Source: a virus
Taxonomy: Duplodnaviria > Heunggongvirae > Uroviricota > Caudoviricetes
DNA: 48,404 nucleotides
Reading direction: 5' to 3' (one strand)
IMG/VR virus record: IMGVR_UViG_3300045988_155859
Both the position numbers and the translations under genes were made by a program. Under the pieces are notes generated by a model, which saw only the letters and a list, made by a program, of their open reading frames with translations, had not been told where the DNA came from and did no database searches. The first letter of the stretch is position 1. The number at the start of each line of letters is the position of its first letter. Below are positions 1 to 13,812 of the stretch, one piece after another.

Positions 1-55
1 AATCAATAAGTTATACCATAAACGTACGTTTTCGTTCCATTGGCCCTCAAACCCC
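1..55 (-). mobile_element. Tn3-family (gamma-delta/Tn1000-like) terminal inverted repeat, left copy: 35-bp IR at 21-55 plus 20 bp of element interior (1-20)
   Basis: 21-55 is the exact reverse complement of 48350-48384 (GGGGTTTGAGGGCCAATGGAACGAAAACGTACGTT). It carries the GGGG terminus and TGGAACGAAAAC...ACGTT core that I recall from Tn3-family IRs. GGGG end faces the phage DNA; the interior faces the window edge. Confidence 0.75.
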
Positions 56-1057
56 TAGCTTGAGCTGAGGATTCAGGTTTTCGTCAAAGCTGATAAGTGC
101 TCTGGCGTTTCTGAGCAGATCAAGAAGTAAGGCTGATATCACATTTTCCTGAGTCATTGCTGGCAGATTTAGCGCCGCTTTGGTTTTCCCTGTTGCCTTG
201 TCAAACGCCTTGATTAGTTCCTTCCTGTAGTTCGGTTCCGTTAATAGCCGATTATGCTCTGTTGCCGCGCGGATAATCGTTTTTTCCTGGTACAGTCGTT
301 TAGCCAGATCACGCTCGTACTGTGTTTTTAACACGCTGCTGATAGCGTTAAAGGCTTCAATGTAGGCCAGCTTGATATCTTTCACGCTTGGACCGTCGAT
401 GCTCTCCATGAGCAAGGTAAATCCGTCTTTTGTCATGCGATAGATTGTTATTTCGCGGTCGCTTCCTTCCAGCGGTCGTTGCTCTTTAAAGAAGTGACGC
501 GCCGCAGCCGTGCGAGGAATGCGTAGCGCATCGATGGCCATAACGATGGAATTGTTTGTGGTGCTGAATGCTTGGGCAACATCGGCTGAGGTTGTGAGTG
601 GCTCGTTGTTGCACACTTTAATGTAAAACATCGGTTTGGCGTTGAGCGTATCGACAACCTCACGAGCATTGTTTGGCGAGACGGTTACGGTCGCGGCCGT
701 TTGCGCGTTCTGGCTGAAATAGCAGTCTTCCAGCCGTTCGAATACATCCCACGCCTGATCGGTTTCGAGCATTTTGGCGTGACGTGCAGCCCCGCGTTCT
801 GTCCAGAGAATGAGGGAGCGGGCATTTTTACCAACTAACCCGATTGTTTCAGGTCTGTTCTTGAACTCGCGTAATTCGTTTTTTTCAATTTTAAAGTAAT
901 GCTTTCCGGCTATGAATCGCGTCGTGTTGTTCAGAAAGTTATCAGAAATGTTTTTGATTTTTGTTCCGTATAACTGCGCCAGAAGTTCAGTTGTAATAAC
1001 GGGGATCTGGTTATGCAAGATAGGCTGTAGGGTGTTAACGGTCGGAAGCGTTTTCAT
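47..1057 (-). CDS. Phage antirepressor (ORF6N-like N-terminal region, Ant/KilA-C-like C-terminal region); 3' end replaced by transposon IR sequence
   Basis: 336-aa ORF with RBS GGGAGGTG before the ATG and ATGA overlap with the upstream small ORF. The last two codons and TGA stop (47-55) lie inside the inverted repeat, so the native C-terminus is missing. Confidence 0.65.
   Translation of the reverse strand: MKTLPTVNTLQPILHNQIPVITTELLAQLYGTKIKNISDNFLNNTTRFIAGKHYFKIEKNELREFKNRPETIGLVGKNARSLILWTERGAARHAKMLETDQAWDVFERLEDCYFSQNAQTAATVTVSPNNAREVVDTLNAKPMFYIKVCNNEPLTTSADVAQAFSTTNNSIVMAIDALRIPRTAAARHFFKEQRPLEGSDREITIYRMTKDGFTLLMESIDGPSVKDIKLAYIEAFNAISSVLKTQYERDLAKRLYQEKTIIRAATEHNRLLTEPNYRKELIKAFDKATGKTKAALNLPAMTQENVISALLLDLLRNARALISFDENLNPQLKLGV
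56..60. repeat. 5-bp target-site duplication TAGCT (left copy); partner at 48345-48349
   Basis: TAGCT lies immediately outside both IR termini in direct orientation, the 5-bp duplication size expected for Tn3-family insertions. Confidence 0.7.
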
Positions 1058-1245
1058 TTTGCACCTCCCATAACTACTTTGGTTACGAGGGAGATTTTTG
1101 CGTCAGAAACAGCGTTATCGTTGCTGGCGATGCGCATAGCTTCGCGCTCGATGATTTCAGCTAGGCGGAATTTATCGGCGTATGAGGCTTTCTTGAGAAG
1201 GATCTTTACGAGGTTGACGTAATAGTCATGGGGTAAGTTTGTCAT
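1054..1245 (-). CDS. Hypothetical small protein, first gene of the antirepressor operon
   Basis: 63-aa ORF whose stop overlaps the antirepressor ATG (ATGA), suggesting translational coupling. Confidence 0.4.
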   Translation of the reverse strand: MTNLPHDYYVNLVKILLKKASYADKFRLAEIIEREAMRIASNDNAVSDAKISLVTKVVMGGAK

Positions 1246-1410
1246 GGTGATAGTTCCCTTAAAGGTTAAGGATACTCACCACCGTCTGGTTCCAATCATT
1301 GGGTGGTGAGACGTACAGGGTTGGAACTACCGGTCACCATGGAATCCGGCGAGTCTTACGACTCCCCCGCACGCCCCACCATAATTTGGGTGTAGCAGTG
1401 CTTTACGCAT

Positions 1411-1430
1411 AAAAAAACCGCTAACGCGGT
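1411..1430 (-). terminator. Candidate intrinsic terminator (minus strand)
   Basis: Minus-strand hairpin ACCGC-GTTA-GCGGT followed by TTTTTTT; short stem. Confidence 0.35.
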
Positions 1431-1577
1431 ATGCGCCATGATGATTATCGGGGTTCCAATCCCGACCGTAGATTTTGCTACGGCTCGGAAAGTGTCCACC
1501 AATGGCGCATTCATGTCAATACGGCGGGATTTTAACAGAGATAACCACATAGCGTGGGTTTATTGGTAGGCAGAAAC

Positions 1578-1602
1578 AAAAAAACCGCCCTATTGAGGAC
1601 GG
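1578..1602 (-). terminator. Candidate intrinsic terminator (minus strand)
   Basis: Minus-strand hairpin CCGTCC-TCAATA-GGGCGG followed by TTTTTTT. Confidence 0.45.
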
Positions 1603-2001
1603 TTCTTTCGTGCTGATCGGATTCGCGGTCCTTTCAGCATAACGTCGTTGTATAAACAACCACGCAAGCACAAGCAGCAAGTTAATTTTACCCAAAAGGT
1701 AATAATAGTCCACTATTATGCTTCAAAAAATTGTGGTTCTTGTTGTGCCTGCAAACTCACAGATTGTGGGTAGGTTACTGATTTTGTGAAAATAAACGAG
1801 TTTTTTCGTTTAATTTCTTTCCTATTACTAATCTTAAAATAATCGTAAAATACCTGTGGACCTTCCCGCCGATTCGCACCCGGGCACCGACTTTAGGGGA
1901 GGATTCTCCGTTGCCGTACATGCAAGCACAAGCAGCCGTGCTTGCTCTCGCGTTGTTTTCGTCGGTGGGGATGCCGTGAAACGGCCTGTAAGGGCCATAC
2001 A

Positions 2002-2124
2002 ATGAAAAAATACTGTATGTGTATTTTTATCGTTGTTACTGGGGCTTTGTTTACGCCACATGGGGAGGGTTGGAAGATTACTGATAACGCTCTGAATGTG
2101 ACGATAAACATTAGCAGCAAGTAG
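2002..2124 (+). CDS. Candidate small hydrophobic peptide (40 aa)
   Basis: MKKYCMCIFIVVTGALF... hydrophobic N-terminus, with a strong terminator immediately downstream; no recognisable family. Confidence 0.2.
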   Translation: MKKYCMCIFIVVTGALFTPHGEGWKITDNALNVTINISSK

Positions 2125-2129
2125 CGATT

Positions 2130-2153
2130 AGGCCCCTTCGGGGGCCTTTTTTA
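2130..2153 (+). terminator. Intrinsic terminator
   Basis: Perfect hairpin AGGCCCC-TTCG-GGGGCCT followed by TTTTTT. Confidence 0.7.
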
Positions 2154-2373
2154 TGGTTGAATTTAAACGCTGGAGCGCATTAAGCCTTTCAGAACTGCTT
2201 CACGTACCCATTCTGGCCTGGTGGATAGCAGGGCAAATAAGCGACCAGCTTTCAGCCGTTTGAGGTCGGTTAGACGAGTTTTCAGTAACCGTGTATATTG
2301 TTGCTCGGACATAACAAATACCCTTGTTGTGTCGCGACGGCCAACAGTTGGCGCTGGAGGCCGTCACCTTCTC

Positions 2374-3319: not shown

Positions 3320-3340
3320 TTGTCGAGACTCCATGTGTTT

Positions 3341-3444
3341 GGTTATATAATTCTATAAATCTATATTTATAGAACGAGGTAAGCATAACCAACTTTTTGG
3401 CGGATGAAAAGCGTTTTATATAATTATATAAATCTATAATCATG
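3341..3444. repeat. AT-rich iterated motif cluster upstream of parF (candidate centromere/operator)
   Basis: Two blocks, TATATAATTCTATAAATCTATATTTATAGA and TTTTATATAATTATATAAATCTATAATCA, immediately upstream of the parF start. Confidence 0.55.
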
Positions 3445-3469
3445 TAAGCGGGCGTTAGCCCGCTTTCAG

Positions 3470-3936: not shown

Positions 3937-4593
3937 TCATAACCAGTTGACAACACTAACTACGCGGCCAAGAACTTTATAACGCTTAAATTCCTCGTTA
4001 TTCAGATGCTTAGTGTTCATTTCAGCATCCCTTTCGGTTGACAGCATAACAGCATTGTCACCCGGTATGACTCTACAGTGCCTCAAAACAACCAGGCCAT
4101 TTCTGTCTTCAAGGGCATAGATCCCCTCATGAATCTCTGTATCGTCTGTATTAATCAGGACTTGGGAGCCTGGGGATATTGTTGGTGACATTAACTCATC
4201 GTTGCTCTGGAGAACTGACAGAGACGATGGGTTGATGTTCTTGCTTCGTAGAATCTCCTGTTCTATCGCCAGCACTGGCTTTTCTCCGGCGTGCGATGCT
4301 ATGTCATTTTTTATAGCTACAAGCCCAGGAATAACAGGAGCGTTAGTATTCTGGGGTGGGAACGGGTTATCTGTTAAGCACGCGATATAAGGCGCTGATG
4401 CTTTCAGGGCGTGCGCGATTTTCTTGATGGCAGGTATAGATGGTTGTCTTAATCCGGCCTCATAGTTCTGCAAGGTGCTTAAGCCTATTCCAGTGACTTG
4501 CTGGAGATCTCCGGCAGTCATGCCGGATTGTTTCCGTAGAGTCTGAATGCGCAGACCTATTTCTTTCTTGATGTTCTCGTCGTTGCTTTTCAT
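3937..4593 (-). CDS. cI: CI-like repressor (N-terminal HTH, C-terminal LexA/S24-like domain)
   Basis: 218 aa: N-terminal HTH region (GMTAGDLQQVTGIGLSTLQNYEAG), linker, then a C-terminal domain with conserved Ser and Lys candidates. Divergent from the Cro-like gene across an operator-rich intergenic region. Confidence 0.8.
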   Translation of the reverse strand: MKSNDENIKKEIGLRIQTLRKQSGMTAGDLQQVTGIGLSTLQNYEAGLRQPSIPAIKKIAHALKASAPYIACLTDNPFPPQNTNAPVIPGLVAIKNDIASHAGEKPVLAIEQEILRSKNINPSSLSVLQSNDELMSPTISPGSQVLINTDDTEIHEGIYALEDRNGLVVLRHCRVIPGDNAVMLSTERDAEMNTKHLNNEEFKRYKVLGRVVSVVNWL

Positions 4594-13736: not shown

Positions 13737-13812
13737 GGCCCCTTAGCTTAGTGGTTAGAGCAGGCGACTCATAATCGCACGGTCATCGGTTCAAATCCGG
13801 TAGGGGCCACCA
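13737..13812 (+). tRNA. tRNA with anticodon CAU (Met, or Ile if lysidine-modified)
   Basis: 76 nt folding by hand into a cloverleaf: 7-bp acceptor stem (GGCCCCT/AGGGGCC), D-arm GCTT...GAGC, anticodon loop CTCATAA, T-loop TTCAAAT, encoded CCA end. Confidence 0.8.

Follow-up and report, generated by a model that had tools for sequence, protein, structure and literature searches.

A P1 immI-type antirepressor leader and a timP/timR-type locus probably adjoin in a phage-plasmid of Escherichia coli

What is carried by the stretch of about 1 kb upstream of the antirepressor operon in a viral DNA of 48,404 nucleotides (IMG/VR record IMGVR_UViG_3300045988_155859; the whole of this DNA is called the window below)? 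An earlier reading of the letters without database searches, referred to here as the sequence-only reading, described positions 1246-2220 as lacking convincing ORFs and listed two tandem minus-strand terminators, an inverted repeat, a direct repeat and a 40-codon hydrophobic ORF followed by a plus-strand terminator. Small antisense RNAs control the antirepressors of P1 and P22, and a regulatory-RNA locus for the antirepressor was proposed on that analogy. All of the listed features were found to exist, at or very near where they had been placed. Two adjoining, independent RNA control modules, each of a kind already described, very probably occupy positions 1246-2220 of what is a ~48-kb E. coli phage-plasmid. 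Judged from its sequence, module 1, on the minus strand at about 1519-1243, is a P1 immI-type leader ahead of the antirepressor operon. Module 2 (1572-2152) is assigned as a putative timP/timR (ryfA) type I toxin-antitoxin locus, apparently unrelated to the antirepressor.

For both modules the analysis demonstrates family membership, architecture, complementarities and the co-variation of these complementarities. Full-length Rfam matches above the gathering threshold were obtained for ryfA, C4 and isrK in the window and also in 11/11 related loci. Terminator-like sites numbered seven within 1000-2700, against 1.6 +/- 1.6 in shuffled sequences. Rfam matches below threshold to RNAI, Phe leader, PhrS and Atu_C8 were set aside as chance matches. 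The two-module locus does not imply a new mechanism.

The C4 antisense RNA and the antirepressor leader

The following features were assigned to module 1:

1491-1519, minus strand: candidate promoter of the isrK-C4-ORF63-ant operon, inferred by reading the sequence
1411-1484, minus strand: IsrK-type RNA (Rfam RF01394, 70.2 bits against a gathering threshold of 50)
1299-1386, minus strand: C4 antisense RNA of the P1 c4 / P4 CI type (Rfam RF01695, 84.3 bits against a gathering threshold of 45)
1289-1295, minus strand: box a2, RNA UUGGAAC, just 3' of C4 and complementary to the C4 junction GUUCCAA
1275-1283, minus strand: downstream arm of a 9-nt inverted repeat, RNA GGUGGUGAG (exact repeat and folds)
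1243-1250, minus strand: box b2, RNA UCACCAUG; it spans the AUG of the leader ORF, and the C4 loop CAUGGUGA is complementary to it
1054-1245, minus strand: 63-codon leader ORF in the position of P1 icd (ORF list; phrog_7886, of unknown function, 2.3e-47)
47-1057, minus strand: antirepressor gene (336 aa, ORF6N and Rha), the regulated output of module 1 (Pfam ORF6N 3e-21, Phage_pRha 1.1e-12)

The C4 match was full length (model positions 1-87 of 87), and C4 was found in 11/11 related loci with scores of 70.8-85.3 bits. The RNA folds with -44.3 kcal/mol (z = -3.92) into a 17-bp closing stem, two hairpins and a 3' tail, CCCAA. In RNAs of the C4 type, RNase P cuts a stable product of ~77 nt out of the operon transcript; what can be seen here that bears on such excision is a closing stem like that of tRNA and the CCCAA tail at the 3' end. 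Box b' lies in the loop of hairpin 2 (1334-1342) and box a' in a single-stranded junction (1321-1327); the folds of C4 and IsrK alike put the boxes in loops or single strands. Box a' pairs with a2, which sits in a 10-nt direct repeat (1288-1297 / 1452-1461), and box b' pairs with b2 over the AUG.

Both pairings were followed across three alleles. The b2 alleles UCACCAUG / UCAUCAUGA / CACAAUGAC face the C4 loops CAUGGUGA / UCAUGAUGA / GUCAUUGUG, with both partners changed, and the a2 alleles UUGGAAC / UUGGCGU / UUAGCCU co-vary with the C4 boxes GUUCCAA / ACGCCAA / AGGCUAA. The co-variation is three-way across the alleles of related plasmids, as the C4 boxes change together with both target copies, the one in IsrK and the one in the leader. 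There are few alleles, and outside the boxes they are close relatives, so that the co-variation stems from only a handful of events, in part the recombination of whole cassettes. A cross-allele matrix of C4 against leader, based on G-U-tolerant runs, failed to separate cognate from non-cognate alleles because chance runs dominate, and heteroimmunity is therefore something we infer from the box-level co-variation only.

The start-codon region of the leader ORF is conserved and co-varies with the C4 loop. Overlap of the leader stop codon with the start of ant (ATGA, 1057-1054) implies that the two are translationally coupled. The leader ORF was matched by neither Pfam nor NCBIfam and showed no similarity to P1 Icd, and the antirepressor matched several PHROG anti-repressor families. 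The 9-nt inverted repeat pointed out earlier is exact (1275-1283 / 1302-1310). For its downstream arm two partners are possible, the 3' strand of the C4 stem at 1302-1310 and the region of b2 and the start codon. Leader folds around it were no better than those of shuffled sequences (z about -1). By our own estimate about two such repeats are expected by chance in 1.1 kb, so that the repeat matters for its location only, one arm being the 3' strand of the C4 closing stem. No firm role is assigned to it, and any regulatory role would be conjectural.

The IsrK-type RNA and its promoter

The candidate promoter of the operon consists of a -35 hexamer TTGACA (1519-1514), a spacer of 17 nt and a -10 hexamer GACACT (1496-1491), with a predicted start at G1484. 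It is nearly invariant across alleles with differing flanks. Owing to its weak -10 hexamer it was missed by the promoter scan. The RNA expected to start here carries box a1 in a hairpin loop (1453-1459) and box b1 in a single strand (1436-1444), and ends at an intrinsic terminator (1430-1411). The first of the two previously noted minus-strand terminators is thereby recovered: the consensus scan found a stem at 1430-1417 followed by a T-run, coinciding with the 3' end of the Rfam isrK match. The score, the two hairpins with the intrinsic terminator and the position upstream of C4, ORF63 and ant all place the element in the isrK family. The family c4-a1b1 (Rfam RF03163), described as 'a1, b1 targets of C4', gave 38.2 bits at 1445-1497 against a gathering threshold of 46.7. 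Owing to this sub-threshold score the element was filed under isrK, though it bears the a1 and b1 boxes.

From these features the following mechanism is proposed. Transcription from the promoter near 1519-1491 would yield IsrK and would mostly halt at the terminator. Read-through would run into C4, which by homology with P1 c4 would be excised as a stable tRNA-like RNA of ~80-90 nt. C4 would then act in trans on its own operon, a' pairing with a2 just downstream and b' with b2 over the leader start codon, and this pairing would block translation of the leader ORF and hence the coupled translation of the antirepressor. In P1, the action of c4 also brings premature termination of transcription. 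The P1 c4/icd/ant mechanism was reportedly worked out by Citron and Schuster in 1990 and 1992 and by Heinrich et al. in 1994 and 1995. Transcript ends, C4 processing and repression in the phage-plasmid element are predicted from characterised homologues, of which c4 has been summarised (PMC12197685).

With second copies of both target boxes, IsrK could act as an anti-antisense or activator RNA by competing for C4, consistent with the results for IsrK of Gifsy-1. Alternatively, IsrK could be only a cis-acting folding or processing element of the C4 precursor, following the 'a1/b1' idea from P1, and no independent trans-activating sRNA. P1 has a1/b1 without an isrK-type terminator (RF03163 match), and the window region also matches RF03163 weakly. 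However, a free RNA of ~75 nt is expected from the window element, given its score above the isrK threshold and its canonical terminator and U-run, and the short IsrK of Gifsy-1 activates antirepressor translation in trans (PMC4825925). A purely cis-acting element is therefore considered unlikely, while still the strongest of the alternatives weighed here. Hfq binding and trans-activation of antirepressor translation by IsrK are known from Gifsy-1 only (PMC4825925).

The predicted ryfA/timP mRNA and its putative toxin ORF

The following features were assigned to module 2:

1856-2152, plus strand: putative ryfA/timP mRNA, 297 nt (Rfam RF00126, 141.8 bits against a gathering threshold of 80)
1885-1891, plus strand: pseudoknot arm SL1 (CACCGAC), pairing with 1961-1967
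1919-1936, plus strand: TimR-binding site in stem-loop 2 of the 5'UTR, ryfA nt 64-81; second copy of the direct repeat
1961-1967, plus strand: pseudoknot arm SL3 (GUCGGUG), pairing with 1885-1891
2002-2124, plus strand: TimP-like hydrophobic toxin ORF, 40 aa, MKKYCMCIFIVVTGALFTPHGEGWKITDNALNVTINISSK, with its AUG at ryfA nt 147, as in K-12
2130-2152, plus strand: intrinsic terminator of ryfA/timP (scan; 3' end of the Rfam ryfA match)
1572-1678, minus strand: TimR-like antitoxin sRNA, ~105 nt (body homologous to K-12 TimR; terminator 1602-1578 and U-run)
1685-1712, minus strand: candidate TimR promoter (TGGACT, 16 nt, TAAAAT, start at about G1678; promoter scan)

The ryfA match spans model positions 1-296 of 296 and was present in 11/11 related loci. 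For comparison, the RF00126 scores were 314.9 for K-12 and 235.5 for pGDT4. Within the predicted mRNA lie the TimR-binding site, the pseudoknot arms, a sequestered SD, the toxin ORF and the terminator. blastn of module 2 against E. coli genomes did not reach the chromosomal ryfA, which is too diverged, and the homology is therefore drawn from the covariance model together with the architecture. A pseudoknot between SL1 and SL3 has been described and is required for translation (PMC11228461). All 7/7 pairs of this pseudoknot were retained in 7/7 sequences, and three of the pairs are compensatory, with both sides changed (CGCUGGC/GCCAGUG in K-12 and CACCGGA/UCCGGUG in pGDT4). The Rfam ryfA model does not include the pseudoknot, whose conservation is therefore an independent test.

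The product of the 40-codon ORF aligned end to end with the NCBIfam model NF040796, toxic_TimP (1-40 of 40, E = 7e-5), with a score of 23 bits against a cutoff of 45. Its identity was 40% to K-12 TimP and 51% to pGDT4 TimP. By its sequence it is a probable divergent homologue of TimP. The ORF is conserved, and the window alleles, K-12 and pGDT4 all retain its start, frame, length (39-41 codons) and AUG position (nt 146-150); an in-frame deletion of 3 nt, one codon, in one allele indicates coding constraint. That the region lacks convincing ORFs is thus true of long ORFs only, because the 40-codon ORF, present at 2002-2124, appears to be a real gene. The plus-strand terminator behind it was recovered by the scan (2130-2147 and a T-run).

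The ryfA homologue might instead be a non-coding, trans-acting sRNA modulating host stress and virulence, with the 40-codon ORF incidental. A literature on oxidative and osmotic stress and virulence in UPEC and APEC (PMC8205139 and PMC13188913) speaks for a RyfA sRNA, as does the TimP score under the NCBIfam cutoff. The kept start, frame, length and position of the ORF and the clean deletion of 3 nt in one allele argue against it, as do the elements of translation control (pseudoknot, sequestered SD and TimR site), which are all conserved with co-variation. An sRNA role and a toxin role can, moreover, coexist, and a purely non-coding ryfA with an incidental ORF was judged improbable.

The TimR-like RNA and its pairing

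The toxin-antitoxin assignment of module 2 was supported by the RNA on the opposite strand. The second of the earlier minus-strand terminators (1578-1602) was absent from the simple scan, yet in the fold of the minus strand from 1682 to 1572 (z = -4.78 for the RNA as a whole) a U-run follows a hairpin of 16 bp. This terminator is nearly invariant in relatives. There is no Rfam model for TimR, and the annotated K-12 timR gave no Rfam match. The hexamers of the candidate TimR promoter are conserved in alleles with diverged surroundings, and its geometry is that of K-12 timR.

The 5' end of the TimR-like RNA, GCUGCUUGUGCUUGCGUG (1678-1661), is complementary to the 5'UTR of ryfA. The direct repeat of 15 nt (1664-1678 / 1922-1936) is exact and lengthens to 18 nt (1661-1678 / 1919-1936), where the one difference becomes a G-U pair in the RNA duplex. 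This corresponds to 15 Watson-Crick or 18 G-U-tolerant pairs with ryfA nt 64-81; the longest Watson-Crick run in 1000 shuffles had a mean of 7.3 and a maximum of 12. In K-12, TimR nt 1-19 pairs with ryfA nt 64-82. Compensatory changes were observed in both pairing partners across three alleles. The folding energy of the duplex between the long RNAs was no better than for shuffles; without constraints, folding a duplex of 130 x 300 nt tells nothing, and counts of contiguous complementarity were used instead. The 18-nt pairing, the terminator, the positions as in K-12, the compensatory alleles and the homologous body together mark this RNA as a TimR-type partner of ryfA.

Following the published mechanism of TimP and TimR (PMC7667032, PMC11228461), the ryfA mRNA would encode a 40-aa membrane-toxin homologue whose translation needs the SL1-SL3 pseudoknot, and the divergent TimR-like sRNA would bind stem-loop 2 via its 5' end and prevent translation. 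Toxicity in the phage-plasmid element, like the addiction role considered below, would carry over from characterised homologues. The plasmid pair should be insulated from the chromosomal host pair, because its pairing sequence differs from that of the chromosomal E. coli pair; with differences from K-12 at the central 8-9 positions, no cross-talk with the host is expected.

A role in plasmid maintenance by post-segregational killing is suggested because timPR adjoins the partition genes, and it is from this gene context that an addiction role may be proposed. Tentatively, and with some doubt, timPR could be a maintenance (post-segregational killing) or anti-superinfection module that was acquired by the phage-plasmid lineage and re-addressed by a swapped pairing sequence. 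If this were true, host TimR could not neutralise the plasmid toxin, nor plasmid TimR the host toxin. A first biological role would be assigned to the timPR family, and the pairing-site alleles and the moved target site of pGDT4 would reflect selection for orthogonality among co-resident copies. The family is found here on a phage-plasmid with what appears to be a private pairing code of its own, which opens its function to assays of plasmid stability or phage exclusion.

The boundary between the modules

The two modules meet at the following site:

1561-1569, no strand: module boundary (blastn pieces and annotations of relatives)

In some relatives an insertion of ~680 bp with an HTH regulator gene lies between window positions 1561 and 1569, and in blastn the identity to relatives switches at this boundary. 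A protein-coding gene in homologues was the outcome that the sequence-only reading held to speak against regulatory RNA. Formally this HTH gene is such a case, but it falls between the modules and refutes nothing. The terminators are not the tandem pair of one transcript: they are separated by a candidate promoter, and each closes a separate small RNA.

That the entire ~1-kb interval is a single structured leader or sRNA locus for the antirepressor, with two tandem terminators attenuating one transcript, is hardly credible: both terminators are indeed on the antirepressor strand upstream of the operon, and C4 and IsrK do govern such operons, but a conserved promoter-like element lies between the terminators with IsrK beginning just downstream of it, the upstream terminator closes an sRNA that pairs with ryfA through its 5' end and has a body homologous to that of K-12 TimR, the 680-bp gene insertion and a recombination breakpoint in relatives fall exactly between the halves, and ryfA/timPR occurs alone in chromosomes and other plasmids with no antirepressor nearby.

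With two separate modules, a regulatory-RNA locus for the antirepressor is borne out for 1243-1519 (C4, isrK and the co-varying boxes), about 250 nt of the interval, and not for the other two thirds (about 1572-2152), which belong to timP/timR. The latter locus accounts for three of the features noted earlier, namely the minus-strand terminator at 1578-1602, the direct repeat of 15 nt, and the hydrophobic ORF together with the plus-strand terminator behind it.

Relation to known systems

The immI region of P1 and P7 has the same order as module 1, with a promoter, an a1/b1-bearing RNA, C4, a2/b2, a small leader ORF and the antirepressor on one strand. Common to both are also the C4 fold with two target-recognition boxes, the position of b2 over the start of the leader ORF, and differences in the boxes of the alleles that are matched in the targets, which are the basis of P1/P7 heteroimmunity. 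In the Rfam scan the order was c4-a1b1, C4 and icd for P1, and isrK followed by C4 for ST64B. In contrast to P1 and P7, the leader here is a 63-aa ORF (phrog_7886) unrelated to Icd, an ORF6N/Rha protein takes the place of Ant1/2 as antirepressor, and the element bearing a1/b1 belongs to the isrK type and has a terminator of its own. The DNA similarity between P1 and the window is confined to about 60 nt.

The isrK-orf45-anrP locus of Gifsy-1 in Salmonella likewise has, on one transcript, an IsrK with a leaky terminator followed by a C4-like region and an antirepressor; its IsrK is complementary to the downstream region, and there is translational coupling to the antirepressor (PMC4825925). In Gifsy-1 the segment after isrK is read as a 45-codon ORF whose stop overlaps anrP (PMC4825925), whereas a separate 63-codon ORF after C4 would carry the coupling here. 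The element described here also differs in being an extrachromosomal phage-plasmid. The isrK-C4 segment of the window was matched by 167 phage records. The same isrK cassette was seen in prophages of the Stx, ST64B, phiV10 and mEp460 types.

The analogy with P1 holds, as a same-strand, processed, trans-acting regulator of the c4 type is predicted; that with P22 sar does not. Both systems have a small RNA that curbs antirepressor translation, but sar is an opposite-strand cis-antisense RNA across the ant RBS, whereas the regulator here lies upstream on the same strand and would act in trans. No plus-strand promoter-like or terminator-like site was found in 1246-1300.

Module 2 shares with the enterobacterial timP/timR loci the full-length ryfA fold, the position of the toxin ORF, the SL1-SL3 pseudoknot and a divergent TimR with its 5' end pairing to SL2 (nt 64-81), a homologous body and a terminator. 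It differs from K-12 timPR in being plasmid-borne next to parA and not between sseA and sseB, and in an intergenic spacer of ~176 nt, without IS128 RNA, compared with 400 nt.

Distribution and annotation

The interval is carried by ~60 sequenced E. coli phage-plasmids of ~48 kb and by three Yersinia phages. The reference strain E. coli ATCC 25922 has a 48.5-kb plasmid with a related locus. The records inspected carry no annotation there for any of the four RNA genes or for the toxin ORF. No paper was found in the literature that ties ryfA or timPR to phage-plasmids, and none on this ~48-kb plasmid family. The locus offers a clean natural case of heteroimmunity alleles built as modules, in which the antisense boxes co-vary three ways. 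For some relatives, part of the C4 gene has been translated as an 'ash family protein', an annotation that is probably spurious.

Identification and distribution of the RNA elements

The whole window was searched against Rfam at gathering thresholds, and three full-length matches were found inside the interval 1246-2220. On one side of this interval is an operon and on the other a partition locus, both on the minus strand. In the operon, the stop codon of the leader ORF overlaps the start codon of the antirepressor.

Features of the interval and its neighbours (window positions, strand)
1057-47, minus: antirepressor, 336 aa, ORF6N/Rha (domain and PHROG matches)
1245-1054, minus: leader ORF, 63 codons (ORF list)
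1386-1299, minus: C4 antisense RNA (RF01695), 84.3 bits, gathering threshold 45
1484-1411, minus: isrK (RF01394), 70.2 bits, gathering threshold 50
G1484, minus: predicted IsrK start; the RNA has two hairpins and a single-stranded region, and ends in an intrinsic terminator
1519-1491, minus: candidate isrK promoter, -35 TTGACA at 1519-1514 (perfect), 17-nt spacer, -10 GACACT at 1496-1491 (weak)
1856-2152, plus: ryfA (RF00126), 141.8 bits, gathering threshold 80
2622-2374, minus: 82-aa ORF of the partition locus
3334-2666, minus: ParA

Three of the four RNA elements are curated Rfam families; the fourth, a TimR-like sRNA, is a homologue of the TimR described in the literature, and all four correspond to published mechanisms. 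The window is a member of an E. coli plasmid family of about 48 kb, which counts the plasmid carried by strain ATCC 25922 and the three Yersinia phages vB_YpM_39, 41 and 44 among its members, and 60 PLSDB records match it at 90-99.8% identity. The module was found in 72 of 5426 complete E. coli genomes, with 73 of its 74 places on plasmids. All three Rfam families were present in each of the 11 related loci fetched, and neither the RNA genes nor the toxin ORF were annotated at the interval in the inspected records.

The sequence-only reading had proposed a regulatory-RNA locus for the antirepressor. This was borne out for 1243-1519, containing isrK, C4 and their pairing boxes, but not for the remainder, which is a timP/timR toxin-antitoxin locus. 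The features it had listed were all present. A consensus terminator scan, in which 7 terminator-like sites stood between 1000 and 2700 where 1.6 would be expected, recovered the terminators at 1411-1430 and, on the plus strand, at 2130-2147; folding of the minus strand showed a 16-bp hairpin with a U-run at 1578-1602. The 9-nt inverted repeat matched exactly at 1275-1283 and 1302-1310, and the exact 15-nt direct repeat could be extended to 18 nt (1661-1678 and 1919-1936).

Proposed antirepressor control module

C4 begins 24 nt beyond IsrK; its predicted fold (z = -3.92) has a closing stem of 17 bp and two hairpins, with CCCAA as the 3' tail. A leader of 53 nt separates C4 from the AUG of the 63-codon ORF, which showed no similarity to Icd and is not an Icd homologue. 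The same architecture is seen in the P1/P7 immI region; Rfam gives the order RF03163 ('a1, b1 targets of C4'), C4 and icd in a P1 genome, and isrK followed by C4 in phage ST64B. The RF03163 model matched the IsrK region of the window below threshold, at 38.2 bits. At the DNA level, the isrK-C4 segment has recognisable similarity to 167 phage records, where it mostly precedes antirepressor or Rha genes.

Both C4 boxes are exposed, box a (GUUCCAA) in the junction and box b (CAUGGUGA) in the loop of hairpin 2, and each has one complementary copy in IsrK and one in the leader. In IsrK, a hairpin loop holds UUGGAAC and the single-stranded region holds UCAUCAUGG; in the leader, UUGGAAC directly follows C4 and UCACCAUG covers the start codon. 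Box alleles were compared across related plasmids.

Alleles of the C4 boxes and their targets
Allele 1: box a GUUCCAA, targets UUGGAAC; box b CAUGGUGA, leader target UCACCAUG
Allele 2: box a ACGCCAA, targets UUGGCGU; box b UCAUGAUGA, leader target UCAUCAUGA
Allele 3: box a AGGCUAA, targets UUAGCCU; box b GUCAUUGUG, leader target CACAAUGAC

The IsrK copy also tracks each allele, in some cases via G-U pairs, and box a alleles are found combined with different box b alleles. The allele set is clear.

The mechanism adopted for this module is that reportedly described for P1 by Citron and Schuster in 1990 and 1992 and by Heinrich et al. in 1994 and 1995. By analogy with P1, processed C4 would pair with the two leader copies (a2 and b2) and block translation of the leader ORF, which would prevent coupled translation of the antirepressor and promote premature termination. 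In Gifsy-1, antirepressor translation is activated by short IsrK, whose target in trans is the read-through transcript (PMC4825925); IsrK may play a corresponding role here.

The arms of the 9-nt inverted repeat are the 3' strand of the C4 stem and the downstream GGUGGUGAG, which could alternatively pair with the start-codon region. Predicted folds around this repeat were not better than those of shuffles. A second 9-nt inverted repeat, ATGCGCCAT / ATGGCGCAT, connects the b1 region of isrK (1431-1439) with the proposed promoter spacer (1502-1510); it may be a pair of operators or a chance match, about two 9-mers of this kind being expected in 1.1 kb. The annotations of some relatives give the leader ORF 32 additional N-terminal codons (equivalent to about 1054-1340 in the window) and name it 'ash family protein' in locus L002 (1555-1842, minus) and 'hypothetical protein' in L011 (1184-1471, minus). 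The Pfam Phage_ASH match (26 bits) covers only residues 2-39, which correspond to the C4 RNA gene, and the name probably derives from translating a conserved RNA gene.

The antirepressor is shorter in the window (336 aa) than in most relatives (380-391 aa), and its PHROG match ends at position 337 of 383. In other relatives its place is taken by a Rha-family gene or by a truncated ORF6N pseudogene, so the operon varies in its output gene as well. A repressor-like protein of 218 aa with an HTH and a weak S24-peptidase match (CI/LexA-like; 3937-4593, minus), 2.7 kb away, is a plausible target of the antirepressor.

The timP/timR module

In Salmonella, the ryfA family is the mRNA of TimP, a toxic inner-membrane protein of 38 aa, repressed by the divergently encoded sRNA TimR. 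The window reproduces this architecture exactly. A minus-strand RNA from G1678 starts with GCUGCUUGUGCUUGCGUG, complementary to ryfA nt 64-81 (15 Watson-Crick pairs, or 18 with one G-U; mean 7.3 and maximum 12 in 1000 shuffles), and is predicted to run through two hairpins to the terminator at 1602-1578. The annotated K-12 locus has its AUG at nt 147 of ryfA, and nt 64-82 of that RNA are the partner of TimR nt 1-19; the positions in the window are the same. The sRNA body and terminator align with K-12 TimR, and the promoter hexamers are kept in alleles with diverged flanks.

Three pairing alleles, with both partners changed, were found in plasmid relatives (AAGCAGC/GCUGCUU, AAGCGGU/GCCGCUU and AAACAGC/GCUGUUU). 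Neither the window TimR nor K-12 TimR has useful complementarity to the other's mRNA at the binding site, so the plasmid pair should, judging from these sequences, be insulated from the host pair. In the Y. pseudotuberculosis conjugative plasmid pGDT4 (NC_011759.1, 2040-2653; Rfam 235 bits, timP annotated), the divergent TimR-like sRNA has 25-nt complementarity to the SD/start-codon region (ryfA nt 135-159) and not to stem-loop 2 (SL2); therefore the antitoxin target site moved in the pGDT4 lineage. The 400-nt timR-ryfA spacer of K-12 (locus L012, 2516-2724) holds the Rfam IS128 RNA, whereas the 176-nt plasmid spacer, where alleles of the module diverge most, holds nothing comparable.

A pseudoknot between stem-loops SL1 and SL3 of the ryfA 5'UTR is required for timP translation (PMC11228461), and it provides an independent test because the Rfam model lacks it. 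Its arms in the window are CACCGAC (1885-1891) and GUCGGUG (1961-1967); it forms in all seven sequences compared, with three pairs changed on both sides. The ORF at 2002-2124 encodes MKKYCMCIFIVVTGALFTPHGEGWKITDNALNVTINISSK, which aligns end to end with the NCBIfam TimP model at 23 bits, below the cutoff of 45, and is 40% identical to K-12 TimP and 51% to the annotated pGDT4 TimP. An in-frame codon deletion in one allele argues for coding constraint.

A third partial repeat copy, AGCAGCAAGT, occurs at 2113-2122 (counterpart at 1673-1682), where it forms the last codons of the TimP ORF (SSK and stop); the same 10-mer ends the K-12 timP ORF. TimR could also pair there if it started a few nt upstream of 1678.

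From the position beside the partition genes, plasmid addiction is the most economical guess for the role of timPR. No link of ryfA or timPR to phage-plasmids was found in the literature searched. The points considered mildly new are limited to the set of immunity-box alleles and to a timPR copy that is unannotated, divergent and re-addressed and is carried by a phage-plasmid.

Junction of the modules and neighbouring features

Several relatives have an inserted segment of about 680 bp, carrying an HTH regulator gene, between 1561 and 1569. Identity to relatives switches at this junction, being 99.5% to its left and 90.7% to its right in one relative, with the opposite pattern in another, which indicates a recombination mosaic. 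The interval is therefore the junction of two exchangeable cassettes. The insertion (2063-2743 in locus L001, 2063-2742 in L002) is present in about half of the fetched relatives and absent from the window. The inserted XRE-type gene (180-190 aa), transcribed away from the isrK promoter and ending at the TimR terminator, may encode a repressor of the ant-operon promoter.

An ORF of 49 codons (2163-2312, minus), directly downstream of the 82-aa par-operon gene, overlaps the interval end; RefSeq annotates it, as a hypothetical protein, in just a subset of relatives, and its only PHROG match is weak (8e-4). The ParA gene is flanked on both sides (2630-2665 and 3335-3445) by AT-rich iterated motifs, variants of TATAAATCTATA / TTATATAATT, which probably serve the par locus as partition-site or operator repeats. 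A tRNA-Met gene is located at 13737-13812 (plus).
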